Source of the DNA: a virus
Taxonomy: Duplodnaviria > Heunggongvirae > Uroviricota > Caudoviricetes
Reading direction: 5' to 3' (one strand)
Virus record (IMG/VR): IMGVR_UViG_2545824709_000009
Length of the DNA: 14,941 nucleotides
Each line of letters begins with the position of its first letter. The stretch's first letter is position 1. The position numbers were made by a program, and so were the translations under genes. Shown here in pieces: positions 1 through 13,374 of the stretch. The notes below the pieces were generated by a model. It was not told where the DNA came from, did no database searches, and worked only from the letters and a program-made list of their open reading frames with translations.

Positions 1-1284
1 TTACTTCTTCGCCTCTGCAACCACTTTACTACCCACGCCGCGGTTATTGTATTCCCACATGCGGTTGTAGTTAGTGTCATTCAGATTGCGCTGTATTTCG
101 TCGTTATCATCTACGCTGCCGGTATTACCCGCAAACGGACGATTAGAGATCACCGCATCGGCCCACGGTTTAGCCGTGTTAAAACCTTCGTTGATGGCGC
201 TATCACGGATCACCACCTGACCGTTGGTATTGGCATCAACATCCAGCGAGCGGCCCAGTTGCGCCACGCCATCACCGGAAGCATTGAAACGGCTGTTTAC
301 AGCGAGGAAACCGTAGTAAATGTTGGACAGCGTTGCCGGTGCAAACACATACGCTTCTTGCTGAGTACGTGAGTTCACCACGCGGAATTCGGTGTTATCG
401 AACACCACTGCGCCGCGACCAGAAACGATATCCACATCCCCTTCAATGTAGCTGTTGGTCACCAGCGTACGCGGCTGACGATTCGTTTCCAGACGGTTCT
501 GCACACCGCTGTTGGTGACAAAGAAGGTGTTCTGACGACCGAGAATGTTCACGTTGTTAATCTGTACCTGGTCACCATCAGTACGCAGTGCCACCGCCGG
601 ATGGTTACCCGCATCTACGCTATCGCCCAGCGTGTTTTCGATGGTCAGGTTTTGCAGTTGCAGGCCATTGTTTTGTGACCAGAAGACCGCTGAACAGAGA
701 ACACCGATACTGTTGCTGCGTTTGCTCTGGCAGCTATCGTACATATACCACGCTGGTTTACCTGGCATATATTTGCCGCGCGGGTTGACGTCGTGACGCC
801 AGTCGGCAGGGCTCATGCCCCCATCAAGGGAAAGCCCAATCTTCACATCAATCGGTTTTTCACCTGTACCGTACAGAGTAATTCCACCCGGAGCGGCAGG
901 AACATATACCGTTCCCTGATACTCACCTGGCATCACGGCAATATACTGGCGCTTGTTGGTACGCTTGATAATTGCCGCATCTACCGCCGCCTGAATCGTG
1001 GTATGCGTTACACCTTGAGTACCCGCCGGGCCGACAACAAAGTCAGGTTGCGCAGGCAGGGTAATCGGGGAAGGATTCCACGCTGCAGCACCTGGTGTCA
1101 GGGATGCAAAATAGTGTTGAGCATCGAAATTCTGCGCTTCTTTTGCCGACAGAATCGGGCGAGAAGAGGTACCAGGCGCGGTTTGATCAGAAGGACGTTG
1201 ATCGGGTGGTGTTGAGCTACAGGCGGTCAGCGTCACGCCAAAAGCCAATGCCAGCGCCAGACGGGAAACTGAAAATGTGTTCAC
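1..1284 (-). CDS. ybhC: Outer-membrane lipoprotein YbhC (pectinesterase-like / acyl-CoA thioesterase family), host gene flanking the lambda attachment site
   Basis: 427-aa minus-strand ORF with an N-terminal signal peptide and lipobox (LTLTAC SS). Recognised from memory as E. coli YbhC, the gene next to lambda attB. Confidence 0.9.
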   Translation of the reverse strand: MNTFSVSRLALALAFGVTLTACSSTPPDQRPSDQTAPGTSSRPILSAKEAQNFDAQHYFASLTPGAAAWNPSPITLPAQPDFVVGPAGTQGVTHTTIQAAVDAAIIKRTNKRQYIAVMPGEYQGTVYVPAAPGGITLYGTGEKPIDVKIGLSLDGGMSPADWRHDVNPRGKYMPGKPAWYMYDSCQSKRSNSIGVLCSAVFWSQNNGLQLQNLTIENTLGDSVDAGNHPAVALRTDGDQVQINNVNILGRQNTFFVTNSGVQNRLETNRQPRTLVTNSYIEGDVDIVSGRGAVVFDNTEFRVVNSRTQQEAYVFAPATLSNIYYGFLAVNSRFNASGDGVAQLGRSLDVDANTNGQVVIRDSAINEGFNTAKPWADAVISNRPFAGNTGSVDDNDEIQRNLNDTNYNRMWEYNNRGVGSKVVAEAKK

Positions 1285-1418: not shown

Positions 1419-2489
1419 TTATTTGATTTCAATTTTGTCCCACTCCCTGCCTCTGTCATCACGATACTGTGATGCCATGGTGTCCGACTTATGCCCGAGA
1501 AGATGTTGAGCAAACTTATCGCTTATCTGCTTCTCATAGAGTCTTGCAGACAAACTGCGCAACTCGTGAAAGGTAGGCGGATCCCCTTCGAAGGAAAGAC
1601 CTGATGCTTTTCGTGCGCGCATAAAATACCTTGATACTGTGCCGGATGAAAGCGGTTCGCGACGAGTAGATGCAATTATGGTTTCTCCGCCAAGAATCTC
1701 TTTGCATTTATCAAGTGTTTCCTTCATTGATATTCCGAGAGCATCAACATGCAATGCTGTTGGGATGGCAATTTTTACGCCTGTTTTGCTTTGCTCGACA
1801 TAAAGATATCCATCTACGATATCAGACCACTTCATTTCGCATAAATCACCAACTCGTTGCCCGGTAACAACAGCCAGTTCCATTGCAAGTCTGAGCCAAC
1901 ATGGTGATGATTCTGCTGCTTGATAAATTTTCAGGTATTCGTCAGCCGTAAGTCTTGATCTCCTTACCTCTGATTTTGCTGCGCGAGTGGCAGCGACAGG
2001 GTTTGTTGTTATATGGCCTTCAGCTATTGCCTCTCGGAATGCATCGCTCAGTGTTGATCTGATTAACTTGGCTGACGCCGCCTTGCCCTCGTCTATGTAT
2101 CCATTGAGCATTGCCGCAATTTCTTTTGTGGTGATGTCTTCAAGTGGAGCATCAGGCAGACCCCTCCTTATTGCTTTAATTTTGCTCATGTAATTTATGA
2201 GTGTCTTCTGCTTGATTCCTCTGCTGGCCAGGATTTTTTCGTAGCGATCAAGCCATGAATGTAACGTAACGGAATTATCACTGTTGATTCTCGCTGTCAG
2301 AGGCTTGTGTTTGTGTCCTGAAAATAACTCAATGTTGGCCTGTATGGCTTCAGTGATTGCGATTCGCCTGTCTCTGCCTAATCCAAACTCTTTACCCGTC
2401 CTTGGGTCCCTGTAGCAGTAATATCCATTGTTTCTTATATAAAGGTTAGGGGGTAAATCCCGGCGCTCATGACTTCGCCTTCTTCCCAT
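1419..2489 (-). CDS. int: Tyrosine integrase, lambda Int type
   Basis: 356-aa ORF starting MGRRRSHERRDLPPNLYIRNNGYYCYRDPRTGKEFGLG and ending ...HLLGHKSDTMASQYRDDRGREWDKIEIK. Recognised from memory as essentially lambda Int, with the expected 3' end about 70 bp from the att core. Confidence 0.97.
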   Translation of the reverse strand: MGRRRSHERRDLPPNLYIRNNGYYCYRDPRTGKEFGLGRDRRIAITEAIQANIELFSGHKHKPLTARINSDNSVTLHSWLDRYEKILASRGIKQKTLINYMSKIKAIRRGLPDAPLEDITTKEIAAMLNGYIDEGKAASAKLIRSTLSDAFREAIAEGHITTNPVAATRAAKSEVRRSRLTADEYLKIYQAAESSPCWLRLAMELAVVTGQRVGDLCEMKWSDIVDGYLYVEQSKTGVKIAIPTALHVDALGISMKETLDKCKEILGGETIIASTRREPLSSGTVSRYFMRARKASGLSFEGDPPTFHELRSLSARLYEKQISDKFAQHLLGHKSDTMASQYRDDRGREWDKIEIK

Positions 2490-2685
2490 TTCTGATCCTC
2501 TTCAAAAGGCTACCTGTTACTGGTCGATTTAAGTCAACCTTTACCGCTGATTCGTGGAACAGATACTCTCTTCCATCCTTAACCGGAGGAGGGAATATCC
2601 TGCACTCGCGTACCCATCGACGAACTGTTTCAAGGCTTCTTGGGCGTCGCTGGCGTGCGTTCCACTCCTGAAGTGTCAAGTACAT
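2467..2685 (-). CDS. xis: Excisionase, lambda Xis type
   Basis: 72-aa ORF MYLTLQEWNARQRRPRSLETVRRWVRECRIFPPPVKDGREYLFHESAVKVDLNRPVTGSLLKRIRNGKKAKS, overlapping the int start by 23 nt as in lambda. Confidence 0.95.
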   Translation of the reverse strand: MYLTLQEWNARQRRPRSLETVRRWVRECRIFPPPVKDGREYLFHESAVKVDLNRPVTGSLLKRIRNGKKAKS

Positions 2686-2710: not shown

Positions 2711-2733
2711 AGAAAAAACCGCCATCAGGCGGC
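2711..2733 (-). terminator. Putative intrinsic terminator just upstream of xis in the leftward transcript
   Basis: Minus-strand reading gives CCGCC-tgat-GGCGG followed by TTTTTTCTT (plus strand aaaaaaccgccatcaggcgg). Confidence 0.5.
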
Positions 2734-3134
2734 TTGGTGTTCTTTCAGTTCTTCAATTCGAATATTGGTTACGTCTGCATGTGCTATCTGCGCCCACAGC
2801 ATTCAGTGGTCATAGCAGTCGCTGATGTTCTCGGCTTCGATAACTCTGTTGAATGGTTCTCCATTCCATTCACCTGTGACTCGGAAGTGCATTTATCATC
2901 TCCATAAAACAAAACCCGCCGTAGCGAGTTCAGATAAAAGAAATCCTCGTCAGTGCGAGGATGCTGTTCATTGCTGCTATACACTTTTTTGCTCTCAACG
3001 TAAGCGGTAGCCCATTCTGTTGGGTTGGTGCAGTTGCTTTTAGGAAATGCTATTTACCCCTTAAATGTCGGCTGAAAGAGCTAAAATCCATGCAAAAAAT
3101 TTACGCAATTTTGTGTATTATTGTGCAGTAAGTA

Positions 3135-3737
3135 ATGAGCTATTTTCTGCGCAAAAAATGGATGGTAAATTTGTCCGGGTCAGGAAAAATTTTATGGGCG
3201 CTAAACATGAAAAAAGATTCGTATCCTTATTTGATTTGCATGACAGTTTCAGGGCTGATCTTTATTTTCCTTTTCTTCTGGTGGCGGGCAGATATCTACA
3301 GGGTCACGTTTCTTAATCAGAGTATATCCCACTATTACATTCTGTTTAGCATGGGAATAGCTTTTCTGTTATCTCTGTTTTGGGTTAAGAAGGGGATAGT
3401 AAAACAAAGAGGCTGGAAGAGTCTGTCAGCATACCTTAAGGTTTATGCAGGGATGTGCATATTTGCAGGATTTTTTCTGATTATACCCCTTACGACACTA
3501 ACTTATTTTTTGCCTGGAGAGACATCGTCTTATGTTGCACCGTATCGGTATACTTCCGGTAGTTCAAAAAGTTGTTCTGGAGCTGAGGTGGATGACCCCG
3601 ATCTACATGAGAATATTCGCATTTGCTATCCGTATGGCAATTATGAGTACGATAATATTATCTATGTTGAAAAGAAAATTAATATATTAGGTGCGGTAGT
3701 GACATATGCACAGACCGCGCGTGATGATACTGAATGA
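3135..3737 (+). CDS. Small polytopic membrane protein of unknown family; candidate lysogen-expressed accessory (exclusion/defence) gene
   Basis: Uninterrupted 200-codon ORF on the strand opposite the early-left operon. It sits in an AT-rich segment (about 38% GC by eye against about 50% in flanking phage genes). Three hydrophobic helices (LICMTVSGLIFIFLFFWW, YYILFSMGIAFLLSLFWV, GMCIFAGFFLIIPLTTL) with a very basic loop KKGIVKQRGWK, then an approximately 70-aa hydrophilic C-terminal tail containing two Cys. Start uncertain: in-frame ATGs at 3135, 3162 and 3207, none with a strong SD. Confidence 0.7.
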   Translation: MSYFLRKKWMVNLSGSGKILWALNMKKDSYPYLICMTVSGLIFIFLFFWWRADIYRVTFLNQSISHYYILFSMGIAFLLSLFWVKKGIVKQRGWKSLSAYLKVYAGMCIFAGFFLIIPLTTLTYFLPGETSSYVAPYRYTSGSSKSCSGAEVDDPDLHENIRICYPYGNYEYDNIIYVEKKINILGAVVTYAQTARDDTE

Positions 3738-3771
3738 TATAGTATATAGCGGGCAAGTTTTAGTTAATTTA

Positions 3772-3809
3772 TCGAGGTAATATAATTTACCTCGACTCGT
3801 TTGTTCTGG
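3772..3809 (+). terminator. Putative hairpin terminator downstream of the membrane-protein gene
   Basis: Perfect 9-bp stem TCGAGGTAA / TTACCTCGA with 6-nt loop TATAAT, followed by a moderately T-rich tract (ctcgtttgttctgg). Confidence 0.4.
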
Positions 3810-3947
3810 TATTAATATTTCGCTTTACGACCGATTTTTATCTGATGATATCATGCGGTTTTCATATACTGACTTACTGTCTTTTCTCCGTTAGCGATTT
3901 TCTCCTGCTCAGCGATGATTTTATCTTTGGCTTCTAGTTAATTTCGC

Positions 3948-4169
3948 TCACTTCGAACCTCTCTGTTTACTGATAAGCTCCAGATCCTCCTGGCAACTTG
4001 CACAAGTCCGACAACCCTGAACGACCAGGCGTCTTCGTTCATCTATCGGATCGCCACACTCACAACAATGAGTGGCAGATATAGCCTGGTGGTTCAGGCG
4101 GCGCATTTTTATTGCTGTGTTGCGCTGTAATTCTTCAATTTCTGATGCTGAATCAATGATGTCTGCCAT
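3948..4169 (-). CDS. TraR/DksA-family C4 zinc-finger protein (lambda orf73-like)
   Basis: 73-aa ORF with CxxC-x17-CxxC (CCECGDPIDERRRLVVQGCRTCASCQ), the pattern of TraR-like RNA-polymerase secondary-channel binders. Position matches lambda orf73 as I recall it. Confidence 0.8.
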   Translation of the reverse strand: MADIIDSASEIEELQRNTAIKMRRLNHQAISATHCCECGDPIDERRRLVVQGCRTCASCQEDLELISKQRGSK

Positions 4170-4223
4170 CTTCCATTAATCCCTGAATTGTTGGTTAATA
4201 CGCTTGAGGGTGAATGCGAATAA

Positions 4224-4246
4224 TAAAAAAGGAGCCTGTAGCTCCC
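4224..4246 (-). terminator. Putative intrinsic terminator in the early-left operon
   Basis: Minus-strand reading gives GGAGC-tacag-GCTCC followed by TTTTTTATT (plus strand aaaaaaggagcctgtagctcc). Confidence 0.5.
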
Positions 4247-4267
4247 TGATGATTTTGCTTTTCATGT

Positions 4268-4579
4268 TCATCGTTCCTTAAAGACGCCGTTTAACATGCC
4301 GATTGCCAGGCTTAAATGAGTCGGTGTGAATCCCATCAGCGTTACCGTTTCGCGGTGCTTCTTCAGTACGCTACGGCAAATGTCATCGACGTTTTTATCC
4401 GGAAACTGCTGTCTGGCTTTTTTGATTTCAGAATTAGCCTGACGGGCAATGCTGCGAAGGGCGTTTTCCTGCTGAGGTGTCATTGAACAAGTCCCATGTC
4501 GGCAAGCATAAGCACACAGAATATGAAGCCCGCTGCCAGAAAAATGCATTCCGTGGTTGTCATACCTGGTCTCTCTCAT
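4268..4579 (-). CDS. Hypothetical early-left protein (lambda orf61-like region, 103 codons here)
   Basis: Minus-strand ORF co-directional with exo and overlapping the stop of the upstream orf63-like ORF. The 5' part aligns positionally with lambda orf61, but the ORF runs longer than 61 codons; the true start could be internal (MTPQQENAL...). Confidence 0.55.
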   Translation of the reverse strand: MRETRYDNHGMHFSGSGLHILCAYACRHGTCSMTPQQENALRSIARQANSEIKKARQQFPDKNVDDICRSVLKKHRETVTLMGFTPTHLSLAIGMLNGVFKER

Positions 4580-4751
4580 CTGCTTCTGCTTTCGCCACCA
4601 TCATTTCCAGCTTTTGTGAAAGGGATGCGGCTAACGTATGAAATTCTTCGTCTGTTTCTACTGGTATTGGCACAAACCTGACTCCAATTTGAGCGAGGCT
4701 ATGTGCCATCTCGATACTCGTTCTTAACTCAACGGGAGATGCTTTGTGCAT
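4560..4751 (-). CDS. Hypothetical protein, lambda orf63-like
   Basis: 63-aa ORF with the same length and relative position to exo as lambda orf63. Confidence 0.75.
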   Translation of the reverse strand: MHKASPVELRTSIEMAHSLAQIGVRFVPIPVETDEEFHTLAASLSQKLEMMVAKAEADERDQV

Positions 4752-4906
4752 ACAGCTCCCCGTTTATTATTTATCTCCTCAGCCAGCCGCTGTGCTTTCA
4801 GGGGATTTCGGATAACAGAAAGGCCGGGAAATACCCAGCCTCGCTTCGTAACGGAGTAGACGAAAGTGATCGTGCCTACGCGGATATTATCGTGAGGATG
4901 TTTCAT
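4724..4906 (-). CDS. Hypothetical protein, lambda orf60a-like
   Basis: 60-aa ORF ([10 protein letters not shown]...) whose start overlaps the exo stop. The six-frame track begins two codons upstream (MAM, at 4912); the ATG at 4906 gives the lambda-like length. Confidence 0.7.
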
Positions 4907-5583
4907 CGCCATTGCTCCCCAAATACAAAACCAATTTCAGCCAGTGCCTCGTCCATTTTTTCGATGAACTCCGGCACCATCTCGTCAAAACTCGCCATGT
5001 AATTTTCATCCCGCTCAACCACGACATAATGCAGGCCTTCACGCTTCATTCGTGGGTCATAGTTGGCAAAGTACCAGGCATCTTTTCGCGTCACCCACAT
5101 GCTGTACTGCACCTGGGCCATGTAAGCTGACTTTATGGCCTCGAAACCACCGAGCCGGAATTTCATGAAATCCCGGGAGGTAAACGGGCATTTCAGTTCA
5201 AGGCCGTTGCCGTCACTGCATAAACCATCGGGAGAGCAGGCGGTGCGCATACTTTCGTCGCGATAGATGATCGGGGATTCAGTAACATTCACGCCGGAAG
5301 TAAACTCAAACAGGGCTCTGGCGTCGTTCTCGTACTGTTTTCCCCAGGCCAGCGCCTTAGCATTAACTTCCGGAGCCACACCGGTGCAAACCTCAGCCAG
5401 CAGGGTGTGGAAGTAGGACATTTTCATGTCAGGCCACTTCTTTCCTGAGCGGGGCTTTGCTATCACGTTGTGAACTTCTGAAGCGGTGATGACGCCGAGC
5501 CGTAATTTGTGCCATGCATCATCCCCCTGTTCGACAGCTCTCACGTCGATCCCGGTACGCTGCAGGATAATGTCCGGTGTCAT
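4903..5583 (-). CDS. exo: Lambda exonuclease (Red-alpha, YqaJ-type 5'-3' exonuclease)
   Basis: 226-aa [43 protein letters not shown]...FGEQWR, recognised as near-identical to lambda Exo; overlaps the bet stop. Confidence 0.97.
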
Positions 5584-6365
5584 GCTGCCACCTTCTGCTC
5601 AGTGGCTTTCTGTTTCAGGAATCCAAGAGCTTTCACTGCTTCGGCCTGTGTCAGTTCTGACGATGCGCGAATGTCGCGGCGAAATATCTGGGAACAGAGC
5701 GGCAATAAGTCGTCATCCCATGTTTTATCCAGGGCGATCAGCAGAGTGTTAATCTCCTGCATGGTTTCATCGTTAACCGGAGTGATGTCGCGTTCCGGCT
5801 GACGTTCTGCAGTGTATGCAGTATTTTCGACAATGCGCTCGGCTTCATCCTTGTCATAGATACCAGCAAATCCGAAGGCCAGACGGGCACACTGAATCAT
5901 GGCTTTATGCCGTAACATCCGTTTGGGATGCGACTGCCACGGCCCCGTAATTTCTCTGCCTTCGCGAGTTTTGAATGGTTCGCGGCGGCATTCATCCATC
6001 CATTCGGTAACGCAGATCGGATGATTACGGTCCTTGCGGTAAATCCGGCATGTACAGGATTCATTGTCCTGCTCAAAGTCCATGCCATCAAACTGCTGGT
6101 TTTCATTGATGATGCGGGACCAGCCATCAACGCCCACCACCGGAACGATGCCGTTCTGCTTATCAGGGAAGGCGTAAATTTCTTTCGTCCACGGATTAAG
6201 GCCGTACTGGTTGGCGACGATCAACAATGCGATGAACTGCGCATCGCTGGCATCACCTTTAAATGCCGTCTGGCGAAGAGTGGTGATCAGTTCCTGTGGG
6301 TCGACAGAATCCATGCCGACACGTTCAGCCAGCTTCCCTGCCAGCGTTGCGAGTGCTGTACTCAT
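5580..6365 (-). CDS. bet: Bet (Red-beta single-strand annealing protein, RecT-like)
   Basis: 261-aa [62 protein letters not shown]..., recognised as lambda Bet. Confidence 0.97.
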
Positions 6366-7545: not shown

Positions 7546-8235
7546 CTACCCATGCTTCCTATATGTCTGCGGCATGCTCCCAATAACCTTACCGAAGATG
7601 AACACCCGGTTCATCTCGTCTTTCTCGATCGGGTCCCACGGTGAGTAGCTTTTGTTATCAGAGATGACCAGCAGCTTATTCTTCATCATTTGCAGGCGCT
7701 TTACATGGGCTGTGTCGTCGTACAGAAACGCATAGATACCATCACCGTCGAAAGATTTAACTGTGATATCAACGAACAGCAGATCACCTGGTTCGATCGT
7801 TCCTGACATGCTGTCACCACGCACGTTAATGATGCGGATATTTTCCGCCTTCCTACCATCGAACATGTGACGAGCATCGTCAAACGAGTACTCAACCGAG
7901 CGTAGAACTTCTACAAACTCACGGTTGATGACTCCCGGCCCAGCACTGACTTCTATATCAAGAACGTCAATCTTGAAGTATTTGGAATGGCTGACAGTTG
8001 ATTGTATTGGTTGCACTGTACTGTCTGACATATTTCCAACGCCAGAAGATAACCATTCTGCGCGCACACCCAAAGCGTTCGCGATCTCCACGATTTTAGT
8101 TGTTTGATTAGCTTTCCCTGTTTCGATTTTCTGAATAGCAGCCTGGCTAACCCCGACCAAATCCCCAAGCGCCTTTTGTGTAAGGCCTCGCGCTAATCTG
8201 GCTTCTTTAAGTCTTTCTGAGAGTGTTGTTTTCAT
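7546..8235 (-). CDS. cI: Prophage repressor CI (N-terminal HTH, C-terminal S24 LexA-like autopeptidase domain)
   Basis: ORF with start chosen at MKTTLSERLKEARLARGLTQKALGDLVGVSQAAIQKIETGK (HTH, XRE-type); C-terminal domain carries the GDSM serine motif and a downstream Lys (AHVKRL). The track's upstream extension (to 8301) runs through the operator region and is unlikely. Divergent from cro across an operator region. Confidence 0.9.
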   Translation of the reverse strand: MKTTLSERLKEARLARGLTQKALGDLVGVSQAAIQKIETGKANQTTKIVEIANALGVRAEWLSSGVGNMSDSTVQPIQSTVSHSKYFKIDVLDIEVSAGPGVINREFVEVLRSVEYSFDDARHMFDGRKAENIRIINVRGDSMSGTIEPGDLLFVDITVKSFDGDGIYAFLYDDTAHVKRLQMMKNKLLVISDNKSYSPWDPIEKDEMNRVFIFGKVIGSMPQTYRKHG

Positions 8236-8339
8236 AGTCCAAATGTACAACCAAGGTTTTATTCCATCAAACGAAAATGGTTGTTGACTAAAAACAACCA
8301 TAGTTTTAATCTTGATTCAAATTAACCACGGAGGTTGTT
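8236..8339. promoter_or_regulatory. OR operator region with divergent pRM/pR promoters
   Basis: 25-bp palindrome ATGGTTGTTgactaaaAACAACCAT (8277-8301) containing -35 TTGACT (8284-8289), with a TTTTAAT-like -10 about 16 bp downstream. Extra half-sites ACAACC (about 8243) and GGTTGTT (8333-8339). Lies between divergent cI and cro. Confidence 0.6.
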
Positions 8340-8639: not shown

Positions 8640-9179
8640 ATGCAACCACTTACATACCAACAGACTAGCGGATTTAGCCCGACTGCGGTGATAAATCGTT
8701 CTCAAACAAAACAGGTGCCAGGCCACGAAAAAATCCGTGATGCCGTCCGCGCCTGGTCGGCTGTAGATAATCAGGATGTCGTTGCCACACTCATTGTGAA
8801 TGAGTATCGGGAGCAGGGCGGCGGCACCATCGATTTCCCTGATGATGTCAGCCGTGCACGCCAGAAGCTGTTCCGCTTCCTCGATAACAAATTCGATTCT
8901 GAAAAATACCGAAATAATGTGCGTGAACTGACCCCGGCAATTCTGGCGGTACTACCGCTGGAATATCGCGGTTACCTGGTTGAGCAGGATAGCTTCATGG
9001 CTAGGTTGGCTGAAATGGAAAAGGAACTCAGTGAGGCAAAACAGGCTGTCATTCTCAACGCACCACGCCACCAGAAACTGAAGGAAATTAGTGAAGGTAT
9101 TGTGTCGATGTTTCGTGTGGACCCAGATCTGGCTGGTCCATTGATGGCGATGGTTACTACCATGCTGGGGGCGATATGA
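8640..9179 (+). CDS. CII-position regulatory protein, probably YdaT family (the CII analogue of Rac-type immunity regions)
   Basis: 179-aa ORF with a good RBS (aaggag) between cro and O. Motifs NEYREQGGGTIDFPDD and LTPAILAVLPLEYRGYL resemble my recollection of YdaT-like proteins. Not similar to lambda CII. Confidence 0.6.
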   Translation: MQPLTYQQTSGFSPTAVINRSQTKQVPGHEKIRDAVRAWSAVDNQDVVATLIVNEYREQGGGTIDFPDDVSRARQKLFRFLDNKFDSEKYRNNVRELTPAILAVLPLEYRGYLVEQDSFMARLAEMEKELSEAKQAVILNAPRHQKLKEISEGIVSMFRVDPDLAGPLMAMVTTMLGAI

Positions 9180-11847: not shown

Positions 11848-13374
11848 ATGAAAAAAGCCATAGCATATATGCGATTTTCATCACCAGGTCAGATGTCTGG
11901 TGATTCATTAAACCGCCAGAGAAGGCTTATTACTGAATGGCTAAAGGTAAATAGTGATTATTACCTTGATACCGTAACGTATGAAGATTTGGGGTTAAGC
12001 GCATTCAATGGAAAGCATGCACAATCAGGAGCTTTTTCGGAATTTTTAGATGCTATAGAACATGGTTATATATTGCCAGGGACTACATTGTTAGTTGAAA
12101 GTCTGGACAGACTTTCAAGAGAAAAAGTCGGTGAAGCGATTGAGCGTCTGAAATTGATTTTGAATCACGGTATTGATGTTATAACTCTTTGCGATAATAC
12201 AGTCTATAATATTGACTCATTGAATGAGCCATATTCATTAATAAAAGCCATACTTATAGCACAAAGGGCAAATGAAGAAAGCGAGATAAAGTCAAGTCGG
12301 GTTAAATTATCATGGAAGAAAAAACGGCAGGATGCACTGGAGTCAGGCACGATTATGACGGCGTCTTGTCCGAGATGGCTCTCATTGGATGACAAAAGAA
12401 CGGCTTTTGTTCCAGACCCCGACAGGGTGAAAACTATTGAGCTAATTTTTAAACTCAGGATGGAAAGGCGCTCATTGAATGCAATAGCCAAGTATTTAAA
12501 TGATCATGCTGTAAAGAATTTCTCAGGAAAAGAAAGTGCATGGGGACCTTCTGTAATTGAAAAATTATTAGCGAATAAAGCTCTGATAGGTATATGCGTA
12601 CCTTCATATCGTGCAAGAGGTAAAGGAATAAGTGAAATCGCTGGCTATTATCCCAGAGTCATATCAGATGATTTGTTTTACGCTGTGCAGGAAATTCGGT
12701 TGGCACCTTTTGGTATTAGCAATAGTAGCAAAAATCCTATGTTGATAAATCTACTTCGAACAGTTATGAAGTGCGAGGCTTGTGGTAATACCATGATTGT
12801 TCATGCGGTATCTGGAAGTTTGCATGGCTATTATGTTTGTCCGATGAGAAGACTGCATCGATGTGACAGGCCATCAATAAAGAGAGATTTGGTTGATTAT
12901 AATATCATTAATGAGTTGCTTTTTAATTGTAGTAAAATCCAACCAGTTGAAAACAAGAAAGATGCTAATGAAACTTTAGAGTTGAAAATTATTGAGCTCC
13001 AGATGAAAATTAATAATTTAATTGCTGCATTATCTGTTGCGCCTGAAGTTACCGCTATAGCAGAAAAAATCAGAGTATTAGATAAGGAATTACGAAGGGC
13101 TTCTGTATCATTAAAAACTTTGAAGAGTAAAGCGGTGAGTTCACTTGGTGATTTTCATGCTATTGACTTAACCAGTAAAAATGGGCGAGAGCTATGTCGT
13201 ACACTTGCCTATAAAACATTCGAAAAAATCATAATCAATACAGATAATAAAACCTGTGATATCTATTTTATGAATGGCATTGTTTTTAAACACTATCCTT
13301 TAATGAAAACAATATCTGCCCAGCAGGCGATAAGTACTCTCAAATATATGGTTGATGGTGAGGTTTATTTTTGA
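11848..13374 (+). CDS. ybcK: Large serine recombinase (YbcK-like; resolvase catalytic domain, recombinase domain, zinc ribbon, coiled coil)
   Basis: 508-aa ORF. N-terminal AYMRFSSPGQ motif (catalytic Ser), Cys cluster CEACGN...YYVCPM...C, and a C-terminal predicted coiled coil (LELKIIELQMKINNLIAALS). Very AT-rich. Length and gene order ren-emrE-ybcK match the DLP12 arrangement from memory. Confidence 0.85.
   Translation: MKKAIAYMRFSSPGQMSGDSLNRQRRLITEWLKVNSDYYLDTVTYEDLGLSAFNGKHAQSGAFSEFLDAIEHGYILPGTTLLVESLDRLSREKVGEAIERLKLILNHGIDVITLCDNTVYNIDSLNEPYSLIKAILIAQRANEESEIKSSRVKLSWKKKRQDALESGTIMTASCPRWLSLDDKRTAFVPDPDRVKTIELIFKLRMERRSLNAIAKYLNDHAVKNFSGKESAWGPSVIEKLLANKALIGICVPSYRARGKGISEIAGYYPRVISDDLFYAVQEIRLAPFGISNSSKNPMLINLLRTVMKCEACGNTMIVHAVSGSLHGYYVCPMRRLHRCDRPSIKRDLVDYNIINELLFNCSKIQPVENKKDANETLELKIIELQMKINNLIAALSVAPEVTAIAEKIRVLDKELRRASVSLKTLKSKAVSSLGDFHAIDLTSKNGRELCRTLAYKTFEKIIINTDNKTCDIYFMNGIVFKHYPLMKTISAQQAISTLKYMVDGEVYF

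Follow-up and report, generated by a model that had tools for sequence, protein, structure and literature searches.

A portable gene unit shared by lambda-like and P2-like prophages encodes a conserved three-helix membrane protein with a predicted periplasmic barrel and a possible role in superinfection exclusion

The IMG/VR virus record IMGVR_UViG_2545824709_000009 (Caudoviricetes) is a 14,941-nucleotide stretch of DNA, referred to here in its entirety as the window, and corresponds to a lambda-like prophage integrated at attLambda rather than to a virion genome, its left end being occupied by the host gene ybhC and an attL junction. Here we describe a non-lambda segment of the b region of this prophage and the single gene that it carries, which encodes a 176-residue inner-membrane protein. 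The gene and its flanking signals form a portable unit that is shared with P2-like prophages, and we tentatively interpret its product as a superinfection-exclusion factor.

Results

A replacement segment with one conserved gene

Alignment by blastn reveals 98.7% identity between the window and phage lambda over positions 1400-2962 and 97.7% identity over positions 3936-5499. Between these limits, lambda 29356-30379, comprising ea8.5 and most of ea22, is replaced by an unrelated segment (Table 1). An initial annotation of the window had placed the ends of lambda similarity near 2990 and 3948 and had proposed this same exchange; the break and the substitution both hold, and the positions shift by about 30 and 12 bp, respectively. 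That annotation had also called the segment markedly AT-rich. Its G+C content (GC) of 38.1% indeed lies below that of the flanks (45.7% and 49.0%), and 13% of equal-sized intervals across the 14.9-kb sequence match or exceed it in AT-richness, so the shift is real but not extreme. The segment recurs at 98.6-99.5% nucleotide identity in phages 434, 2B8, and mEp332.

A single plus-strand open reading frame (ORF) of 200 codons, 3135-3737, runs against int, xis, the TraR-like gene and, as initially proposed, the pL operon. The full 200-residue translation does not represent the true product. At seven of seven homologous loci the gene starts at the MKK codon equivalent to window position 3207, with an in-frame stop 2-19 codons further upstream and no alternative start in between. 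The homologous proteins of Salmonella, Klebsiella, Enterobacter, and Cedecea have 169-180 residues and begin with MKK(D/Y)SYP. Because the homologues all begin at the equivalent of 3207 and have in-frame stops upstream, the product is assigned 176 residues, and the 200-residue protein of the initial annotation is set aside. The records of phages 434 and mEp332 list a product of 188 or 200 residues together with an upstream 56-residue ‘membrane protein’, and attribute no function to either. The latter ORF (2961-3131) overlaps both the tL4 hairpin and the conserved repeats described below, yields no NCBIfam or PADLOC match, and is treated here as an over-call.

The ratio of nonsynonymous to synonymous substitution rates (dN/dS) for the whole protein is 0.10-0.16 against three diverged homologues. 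When the protein is divided, the ratio falls to 0.05-0.10 for the C-terminal domain and is 0.12-0.22 for the transmembrane (TM) part. This pattern of substitution identifies a real gene rather than a chance ORF, with purifying selection that is strongest in the soluble domain. The gene is likewise intact (ECs_0804) in the decayed Sp3 prophage of Escherichia coli O157:H7 Sakai, in which int and bet are pseudogenes.

Table 1. Positions of the replacement segment, the portable unit, and neighbouring features in the window.
Feature	Position	Strand	Basis
Host ybhC (Pectinesterase, Pfam), followed by attL junction stretch 1285-1418	1-1284	-	
int	1419-2489	-	
xis	2467-2685	-	
Left-flank hairpin, tL4 terminator of the pL operon according to the old 434 record	2943-2962	-	Terminator scan; M60848 annotation mapping to 2936-2966
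Non-lambda replacement segment, ea8.5/ea22 position of the b region	2963-3935 (973 bp)	.	blastn break points 2962/3936
Portable unit (moron) with regulatory block, gene, and hairpin	3070-3827 (758 bp)	+	Continuous blastn match to L018 5864-6619
Three ATTGTGCAnn-related direct repeats, 10-bp spacing; candidate regulator-binding sites	3101-3130	+	Upstream alignment
Over-called N-terminal extension of the 200-residue ORF, overlapping the promoter	3135-3206	+	Seven homologues without the extension
18-bp palindrome ATTTTCTGCGCAAAAAAT, TGCGCA core, just upstream of the -10 element; candidate operator	3142-3159	.	Repeat search, 92% complementary
Predicted extended -10 element TGgTAAATT	3164-3172	+	Conservation across homologue loci
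Coding sequence, 176-residue inner-membrane protein	3207-3737	+	Homologue starts, alignment, AlphaFold2 model, dN/dS
TM1	3219-3293		
TM2	3318-3389		
TM3	3414-3509		
Predicted periplasmic domain, residues 102-176, five-stranded small beta-barrel	3510-3737	+	
Downstream hairpin, weak intrinsic terminator	3772-3795	+	9-bp stem, free energy -12.9 kcal/mol, z -3.3
TraR/DksA zinc-finger gene	3948-4169	-	zf-dskA_traR match, E 1.6e-8

The gene travels with candidate regulatory signals

The gene belongs to a unit that aligns as one block with DNA in the gpA-gpQ hotspot of a P2-like prophage from E. coli (locus L018; 76.5% nucleotide identity) and, at 71-72% identity, with Salmonella P2-like prophages. 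The shared unit extends beyond the gene by 137 bp on its upstream side and by 90 bp on its downstream side. Upstream, the direct repeats are degenerate in the window, present in two copies in L018, and perfect in Salmonella locus L005 (three copies at 10-nt spacing; 5894-5926), and locus L004 is short of exactly one repeat unit. The palindrome is also found at L018 5936-5953. Neither the repeats nor the palindrome gave a convincing match to the consensuses of CRP, PhoB, OmpR, CytR, DnaA, LexA, PurR, or NagC. Closest to the gene, the predicted extended -10 element TGnTAAATT is kept in E. coli, Salmonella, and Cedecea loci, even where the encoded proteins share only 55-60% identity, and transcription is predicted to start near position 3179, leaving a leader of 28 nt.

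Downstream, the hairpin is followed by a weak U-tract in the window. In L018 its stem is partly kept, with one compensatory change from A-U to G-C, one broken pair, and no U-run. Rfam recognizes no RNA family in the window. The predicted -10 element, the upstream block, and the downstream hairpin all accompany the gene in lambdoid and P2-like phages alike, and both the separate upstream region and the hairpin that the initial annotation had pointed out are thereby borne out.

The unit has the anatomy of a classical moron and is probably a self-contained transcription unit. It lies in extra DNA that lambda lacks and that 434, 2B8, and mEp332 carry, the junctions are sharp (2962/2963 and 3935/3936), and the base composition of the segment differs from that of its neighbours by a modest margin. 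The left-flank hairpin marks the limit of lambda homology and lies outside the moron. These features agree with the published definition of a moron (PMC3594210).

Predicted architecture of the protein

The protein contains three TM helices, where two or three had been anticipated. An AlphaFold2 model computed from a 21-sequence alignment (predicted local distance difference test, pLDDT, 86.9) places helices at residues 5-29, 38-61, and 70-101, a short strand at residues 34-36, and five strands between residues 105 and 171. The C-terminal domain modelled alone reaches a pLDDT of 90.5. In the full-length model the strand from the TM1-TM2 loop joins the C-terminal sheet, and the module is best described as a compact, five-stranded barrel, similar to the oligonucleotide/oligosaccharide-binding (OB) fold, which is predicted to be seated on the membrane surface.

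The charge distribution conforms to the basic loop and the hydrophilic, two-cysteine tail that the initial annotation had assigned to cytoplasm and periplasm, respectively. Loop 2 (residues 62-81) holds five lysine or arginine residues and lacks acidic ones, and the last 75 residues of the protein hold 12 acidic and six basic residues and two invariant cysteines. Applied to this distribution, the positive-inside rule would place the N terminus and loop 2 in the cytoplasm and loop 1 and the barrel in the periplasm. The invariant Cys123 and Cys140 flank the strand 2-3 hairpin of the barrel, and a disulfide between them that clamps the module is plausible. The family alignment contains 30 invariant columns, and the invariant motifs lie mainly in the predicted periplasmic parts, namely IYRxTFL in loop 1 followed by SCSGAxV, IxICYPxGxY, and EKRSNxLGxVV.

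Distribution in prophages, chromosomes, and megaplasmids

In the P2-like prophages of E. coli, Salmonella, and Klebsiella that were examined, the gene always lies between the portal gene Q and the replication gene A. The 79 loci found in IMG/VR divide into 64 lambdoid loci with proteins 97-100% identical to that of the window, 14 P2-like loci with proteins 51-79% identical, all 14 in the Q-A position, and one locus of neither type. Diversity thus sits in the P2-like prophages, and the lambdoid allele is nearly clonal, which suggests that a lambdoid b region received the gene in one recent transfer and that recombination then spread it; the direction, from P2-like to lambdoid, is our reading of where the sequence diversity lies. 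The 434-type cassette occurs in 915 of 5426 complete E. coli genomes (17%), O157:H7 Sakai among them.

The gpA-gpQ interval of P2-like prophages is a hotspot that carries tin, old, and several validated defence systems (Rousset et al., 2022; PMC9122126). The ‘system #4’ listed in Table S5B of that study, with 470 occurrences, no Pfam family, and three TM helices (PMC9122126), is 51% identical to the protein described here over 168 residues (BLASTP, E 2e-56) and is the fourth most frequent cargo of the hotspot. This residence newly supports a role in defence or lysogenic conversion.

Two of these hotspots contain further genes beside the homologue. In Klebsiella (L022 2281-5623) it adjoins a two-gene candidate system composed of a 790-residue AAA_16 protein and a 279-residue protein, and in Salmonella (L004 5284-5888) it is preceded by an 81-residue gene and a 119-residue gene, the latter with a DxDGV HAD-like motif. 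Both neighbour pairs are possible additional hotspot systems.

Homologues are also found away from phage genes. In at least six Enterobacter species the gene occupies a syntenic site beside genes for a GGDEF protein and an AI-2E transporter; the Cedecea and Pseudescherichia copies have one neighbour in common; and on Pantoea megaplasmids the gene sits at a fixed site. No partner gene is consistent across the non-phage contexts examined. A Klebsiella copy is divergent from a bglF-like EIIBCA gene of the phosphotransferase system (PTS) (L012 3882-6543), and a Serratia copy lies directly downstream of ptsG (L124 4333-6510). Two independent non-phage copies thus adjoin glucose-family PTS permease genes; the other chromosomal contexts contain no PTS gene, and the association may be a coincidence. 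In Citrobacter portucalensis (L029 4422-7051) a 55%-identical homologue stands immediately upstream of an RstB-like sensor-kinase gene, which is followed by tus- and fumC-like genes, all of them read from N-terminal sequences only. Finally, a 3.5-kb contig labelled as a metagenome-assembled genome of ‘Candidatus Nanosynbacter’ (L028; JARKOR010000073.1) encodes a protein 100% identical to that of the window and is almost certainly a mis-binned fragment of an E. coli prophage.

A narrow family without a characterized relative

The initial annotation recognized no family for the protein, and profile searches lead to the same result. Pfam returns no family at E<=0.1, the sole line being DUF6057 at E 0.18; NCBIfam gives no meaningful match; and the PADLOC-DB v2 defence models give no family at E<=1. 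The C-terminal 88 residues are covered by a match to PHROG 1416 (‘unknown function’; E 7e-51), and no annotated PHROG was matched. An exhaustive profile search across 1.8 billion representatives recovers only 61 proteins, nearly all of about 170 residues, a 3074-residue match being an artefact in which 12 repeats, each worth about 2 bits, are added up. Cluster members are named ‘hypothetical’ or ‘transmembrane protein’ throughout, and the gene is present in just 12 species representatives among about 185,000. A profile search against PDB sequences finds nothing below E 0.49, and a structure search of BFVD finds no significant relative. The family is therefore narrow and has neither a characterized relative nor a close structural match.

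Several assignments suggested by size, topology, or motif were considered and rejected. Profile comparison by hhalign gives a probability of 0.2% for P22 SieA, with no homology to SieA types A-C, 0.2% for the SieB family of lambda and P22 (P22 SieB), and 0.75% for HK97 gp15/YebO. The SCSGA loop brings to mind the lysozyme inhibitors MliC and PliC, of which an SxSGAxY loop is characteristic and of which MliC corresponds to COG3895. The hhalign probability against E. coli MliC is 0.3%, and no Pfam family agrees. An NfeD-like identity would imply three TM helices, a C-terminal OB-fold barrel, and an adjacent SPFH gene; no Pfam family was obtained at the threshold given above and no SPFH neighbour occurs in any locus examined. 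The TM protein of the ‘HAD hydrolase + TM’ anti-T7 system (Rousset et al., Table S2) is unrelated, as judged by reading its sequence.

Other features of the prophage

The TraR-like neighbour to the right of the segment, proposed in the initial annotation, is confirmed by its zinc-finger match (Table 1). To the left, a homologue of lambda lambdap35 (434 ORF55) at 2725-2892(-) contains an internal stop and is absent from the list of intact ORFs; the same homologue is an annotated pseudogene in CP025849, whose cassette is identical over window positions 3080-3830. Beyond the O/P replication genes, 11848-13374(+) encodes a 508-residue large serine recombinase (Resolvase, Recombinase, Zn_ribbon_recom), although the prophage already possesses a tyrosine integrase. 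This is the part of the window with the lowest GC (about 34%) and it resembles a second foreign insertion. The immunity region encodes a 251-residue S24/HTH repressor and a YdaT_toxin-domain protein in the place of lambda cII (7546-8301(-) and 8640-9179(+), respectively, for the two genes as listed). Despite a b region of the 434/mEp332 type, the immunity module of the window is unlike those of both lambda and 434.

Discussion

A possible role in superinfection exclusion

We tentatively favour superinfection exclusion as the function of this gene, that is, the masking or alteration of a conserved host inner-membrane component such that genome entry is blocked. The proposal has analogues in HK97 gp15 and P22 SieA, small inner-membrane moron products of similar form and location that prevent genome entry. 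In its favour stand the moron anatomy, the constrained protein with its topology, the place in a defence hotspot, and the retention of the gene in the decayed Sp3 prophage together with its wide spread in E. coli. The unit most likely originated in the cos-proximal gpA-gpQ accessory hotspot of P2-like prophages and would have been inserted into a lambda-like b region in place of ea8.5/ea22, oriented against pL. There, the conserved extended -10 promoter would allow expression from the repressed prophage independently of pL, and host factors may modulate the promoter at the upstream repeats and palindrome. The conserved periplasmic module would then bind, on the outer face of the inner membrane, a host component that is itself conserved, and would stop superinfecting phages from completing genome delivery across this membrane. 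Such a mode would be exclusion of the type of HK97 gp15, P22 SieA, or T4 Imm rather than cell suicide.

Two features of the protein narrow this proposal. Since the barrel is small and lies against the membrane, its action should be confined to the periplasmic side of the inner membrane, where tape-measure and ejection proteins build the DNA conduit and where inner-membrane entry factors are accessible. Moreover, because the periplasmic module is extremely conserved, its target is expected to be a conserved host component and not a fast-evolving phage protein. PTS permeases are inner-membrane entry factors for lambdoid phages and, given the two copies found beside ptsG- and bglF-like genes, are candidates for the masked factor. 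A wider version of the proposal, which we consider rather doubtful, holds that the proteins constitute a new superinfection-exclusion family common to two unrelated temperate lineages, the lambda-like siphoviruses and the P2-like myoviruses, that this family either stems from an enterobacterial chromosomal gene or became domesticated as one, and that its OB-like barrel masks a host entry factor.

A number of observations weigh against exclusion. The strong purifying selection is unlike the diversification of phage-contacting proteins. Because 434 lysogens support normal plating of lambda, any exclusion is unlikely to act on lambda itself. The promoter is predicted from conservation, and a generic sigma-70 scan did not call it because its -35 region is weak. 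None of the homology searches (Pfam, NCBIfam, PADLOC, and a PHROG of ‘unknown function’), nor any experiment, ties the family to phage resistance. System #4 is absent from the systems cloned and tested by Rousset et al. (2022; PMC9122126), and the P2 hotspot also houses non-defence cargo, for example partition systems and a cytolethal distending toxin (CDT) (PMC9122126). Lastly, homologues at fixed sites without phage genes exist on chromosomes or megaplasmids of Enterobacter, Cedecea/Pseudescherichia, Klebsiella, Serratia, and Pantoea. Such copies are compatible with exclusion because HK97 gp15 likewise has mostly chromosomal homologues.

Alternative explanations

A non-defence role in the host envelope ranks just below exclusion and is nearly as likely. 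Under this possible explanation the partner bound by the barrel would be a host protein, for example a sensor kinase, a transporter, or a cell-wall enzyme, and the gene would be phage fitness cargo that affects envelope physiology or acts in lysogenic conversion. The synteny across Enterobacter species, the common neighbour in Cedecea and Pseudescherichia, and the fixed megaplasmid site are what would be expected of such a gene, as are the strongest constraint falling on the periplasmic domain, the variable neighbours with no consistent partner, and the presence of non-defence genes in the P2 hotspot. However, most copies and the greatest diversity are found in prophage accessory hotspots, the absence of the gene from most Enterobacteriaceae would be odd for a housekeeping function, and HK97 gp15 excludes phages even though it has chromosomal homologues. 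An orphan immunity protein or inhibitor directed against an agent that acts in the periplasm (an immunity protein to a bacteriocin, to contact-dependent inhibition, or to a type VI secretion system, or else an inhibitor of lysozyme that is anchored in the membrane, in the manner of MliC or T4 Sp) appears improbable. A small, membrane-anchored, disulfide-containing protein with a predicted periplasmic domain would suit this task, orphan copies occur in many genomic contexts, and hhalign sets the invariant S-C-S-G-A-x-V loop on the SASGARY of E. coli MliC; yet the probability of that alignment is negligible, no MliC family is matched in Pfam, and no toxin gene is adjacent in the contexts examined.

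Somewhat less probable again is an abortive-infection effector that is silent in the membrane until infection, whereupon it depolarizes or permeabilizes the cell in the manner of RexB. TM proteins in this hotspot are often read as suicide effectors, and this is a multi-TM protein. Nevertheless, the gene stands alone without a sensor partner, the cytoplasmic part of the protein amounts to no more than a 20-residue loop, its most conserved part is periplasmic rather than in the TM helices, PADLOC provides no match, and chromosomes retain the gene stably. We regard as very unlikely a lysogeny-establishment gene activated by CII and producing the 188-200-residue protein of the 434 and mEp332 records. 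The 434 record does label 3111-3124 (TTGT-N6-TTGT) as a CII site and starts the coding sequence upstream of 3207. That reading of the site is not accepted because the pattern TTGY-N6-TTGY occurs at chance frequency (four times in the window against 3.8 expected) and because the block is conserved in P2-like prophages, which as a group are not known to have CII; the N-terminal extension is, in addition, absent from all other homologues.

Significance and novelty

The gene is notable for its presence in the classical phage 434, in about one-sixth of complete E. coli genomes including O157:H7, and as the fourth commonest cargo of the P2 hotspot. If it does exclude phages through a host component, it would constitute a widespread single-gene barrier of relevance to host range in phage therapy, and would offer a handle on the poorly understood passage of genomes across the inner membrane. 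Should the wider family proposal also hold, the consequence would be broad, receptor-independent protection in roughly one in six E. coli genomes. If it is instead a host-physiology factor, a chromosomal envelope gene would have been captured repeatedly by two unrelated phage lineages.

The initial annotation had presented the gene as undescribed, a description that must be withdrawn: it is annotated in phage 434, belongs to PHROG 1416, and is system #4 of Rousset et al. The sequence is thus in databases, the family is catalogued without a function, and the type of element, a moron with a small membrane protein, is familiar. What is new is the revised gene model, the delimitation of the portable unit and of the conserved regulatory block within it, the structural picture, the chromosomal relatives, and the connection, made through sequence comparison, between the b-region gene of phage 434 and the cargo of the P2 hotspot.

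Comparison with known systems

HK97 gp15 is a moron with demonstrated superinfection exclusion and mostly non-phage enterobacterial homologues (PMC3594210). Like gp15, the first described moron, the gene described here is a single-gene moron of a lambdoid prophage, with its own expression signals (predicted in the present case), a small inner-membrane product, and a family confined to Enterobacteriaceae that includes many non-phage chromosomal homologues. The two proteins differ in that gp15 has 62 residues, one TM helix, and no periplasmic barrel, compared with 176 residues and three helices here. In addition, gp15 is encoded in the tail operon and not in the b region, and its exclusion activity is demonstrated, whereas exclusion by the present protein is a prediction.

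P22 SieA, which blocks DNA delivery at the inner membrane, is likewise a prophage inner-membrane protein of similar length (about 165-176 residues for the pair), with three predicted TM helices and its own promoter (predicted in the present case). SieA, however, is arranged as TM1, a soluble loop of about 45 residues, and TM2-TM3 with almost no C-terminal domain, and the protein described here has a folded 75-residue domain after TM3. In having three TM helices and then a small barrel of five strands, it resembles short NfeD-type proteins.

The closest counterparts are phage genes catalogued without a function. CPT_434_36 of phage 434, annotated only as a ‘putative membrane protein’, and XSB40999 of mEp332 are the same gene, at the nucleotide identity given above for the segment. 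System #4 of Rousset et al. is homologous and has the same length, motifs, and three TM helices; it differs in residing between gpA and gpQ of P2-like myovirus prophages, whereas the present copy occupies a lambdoid b region.

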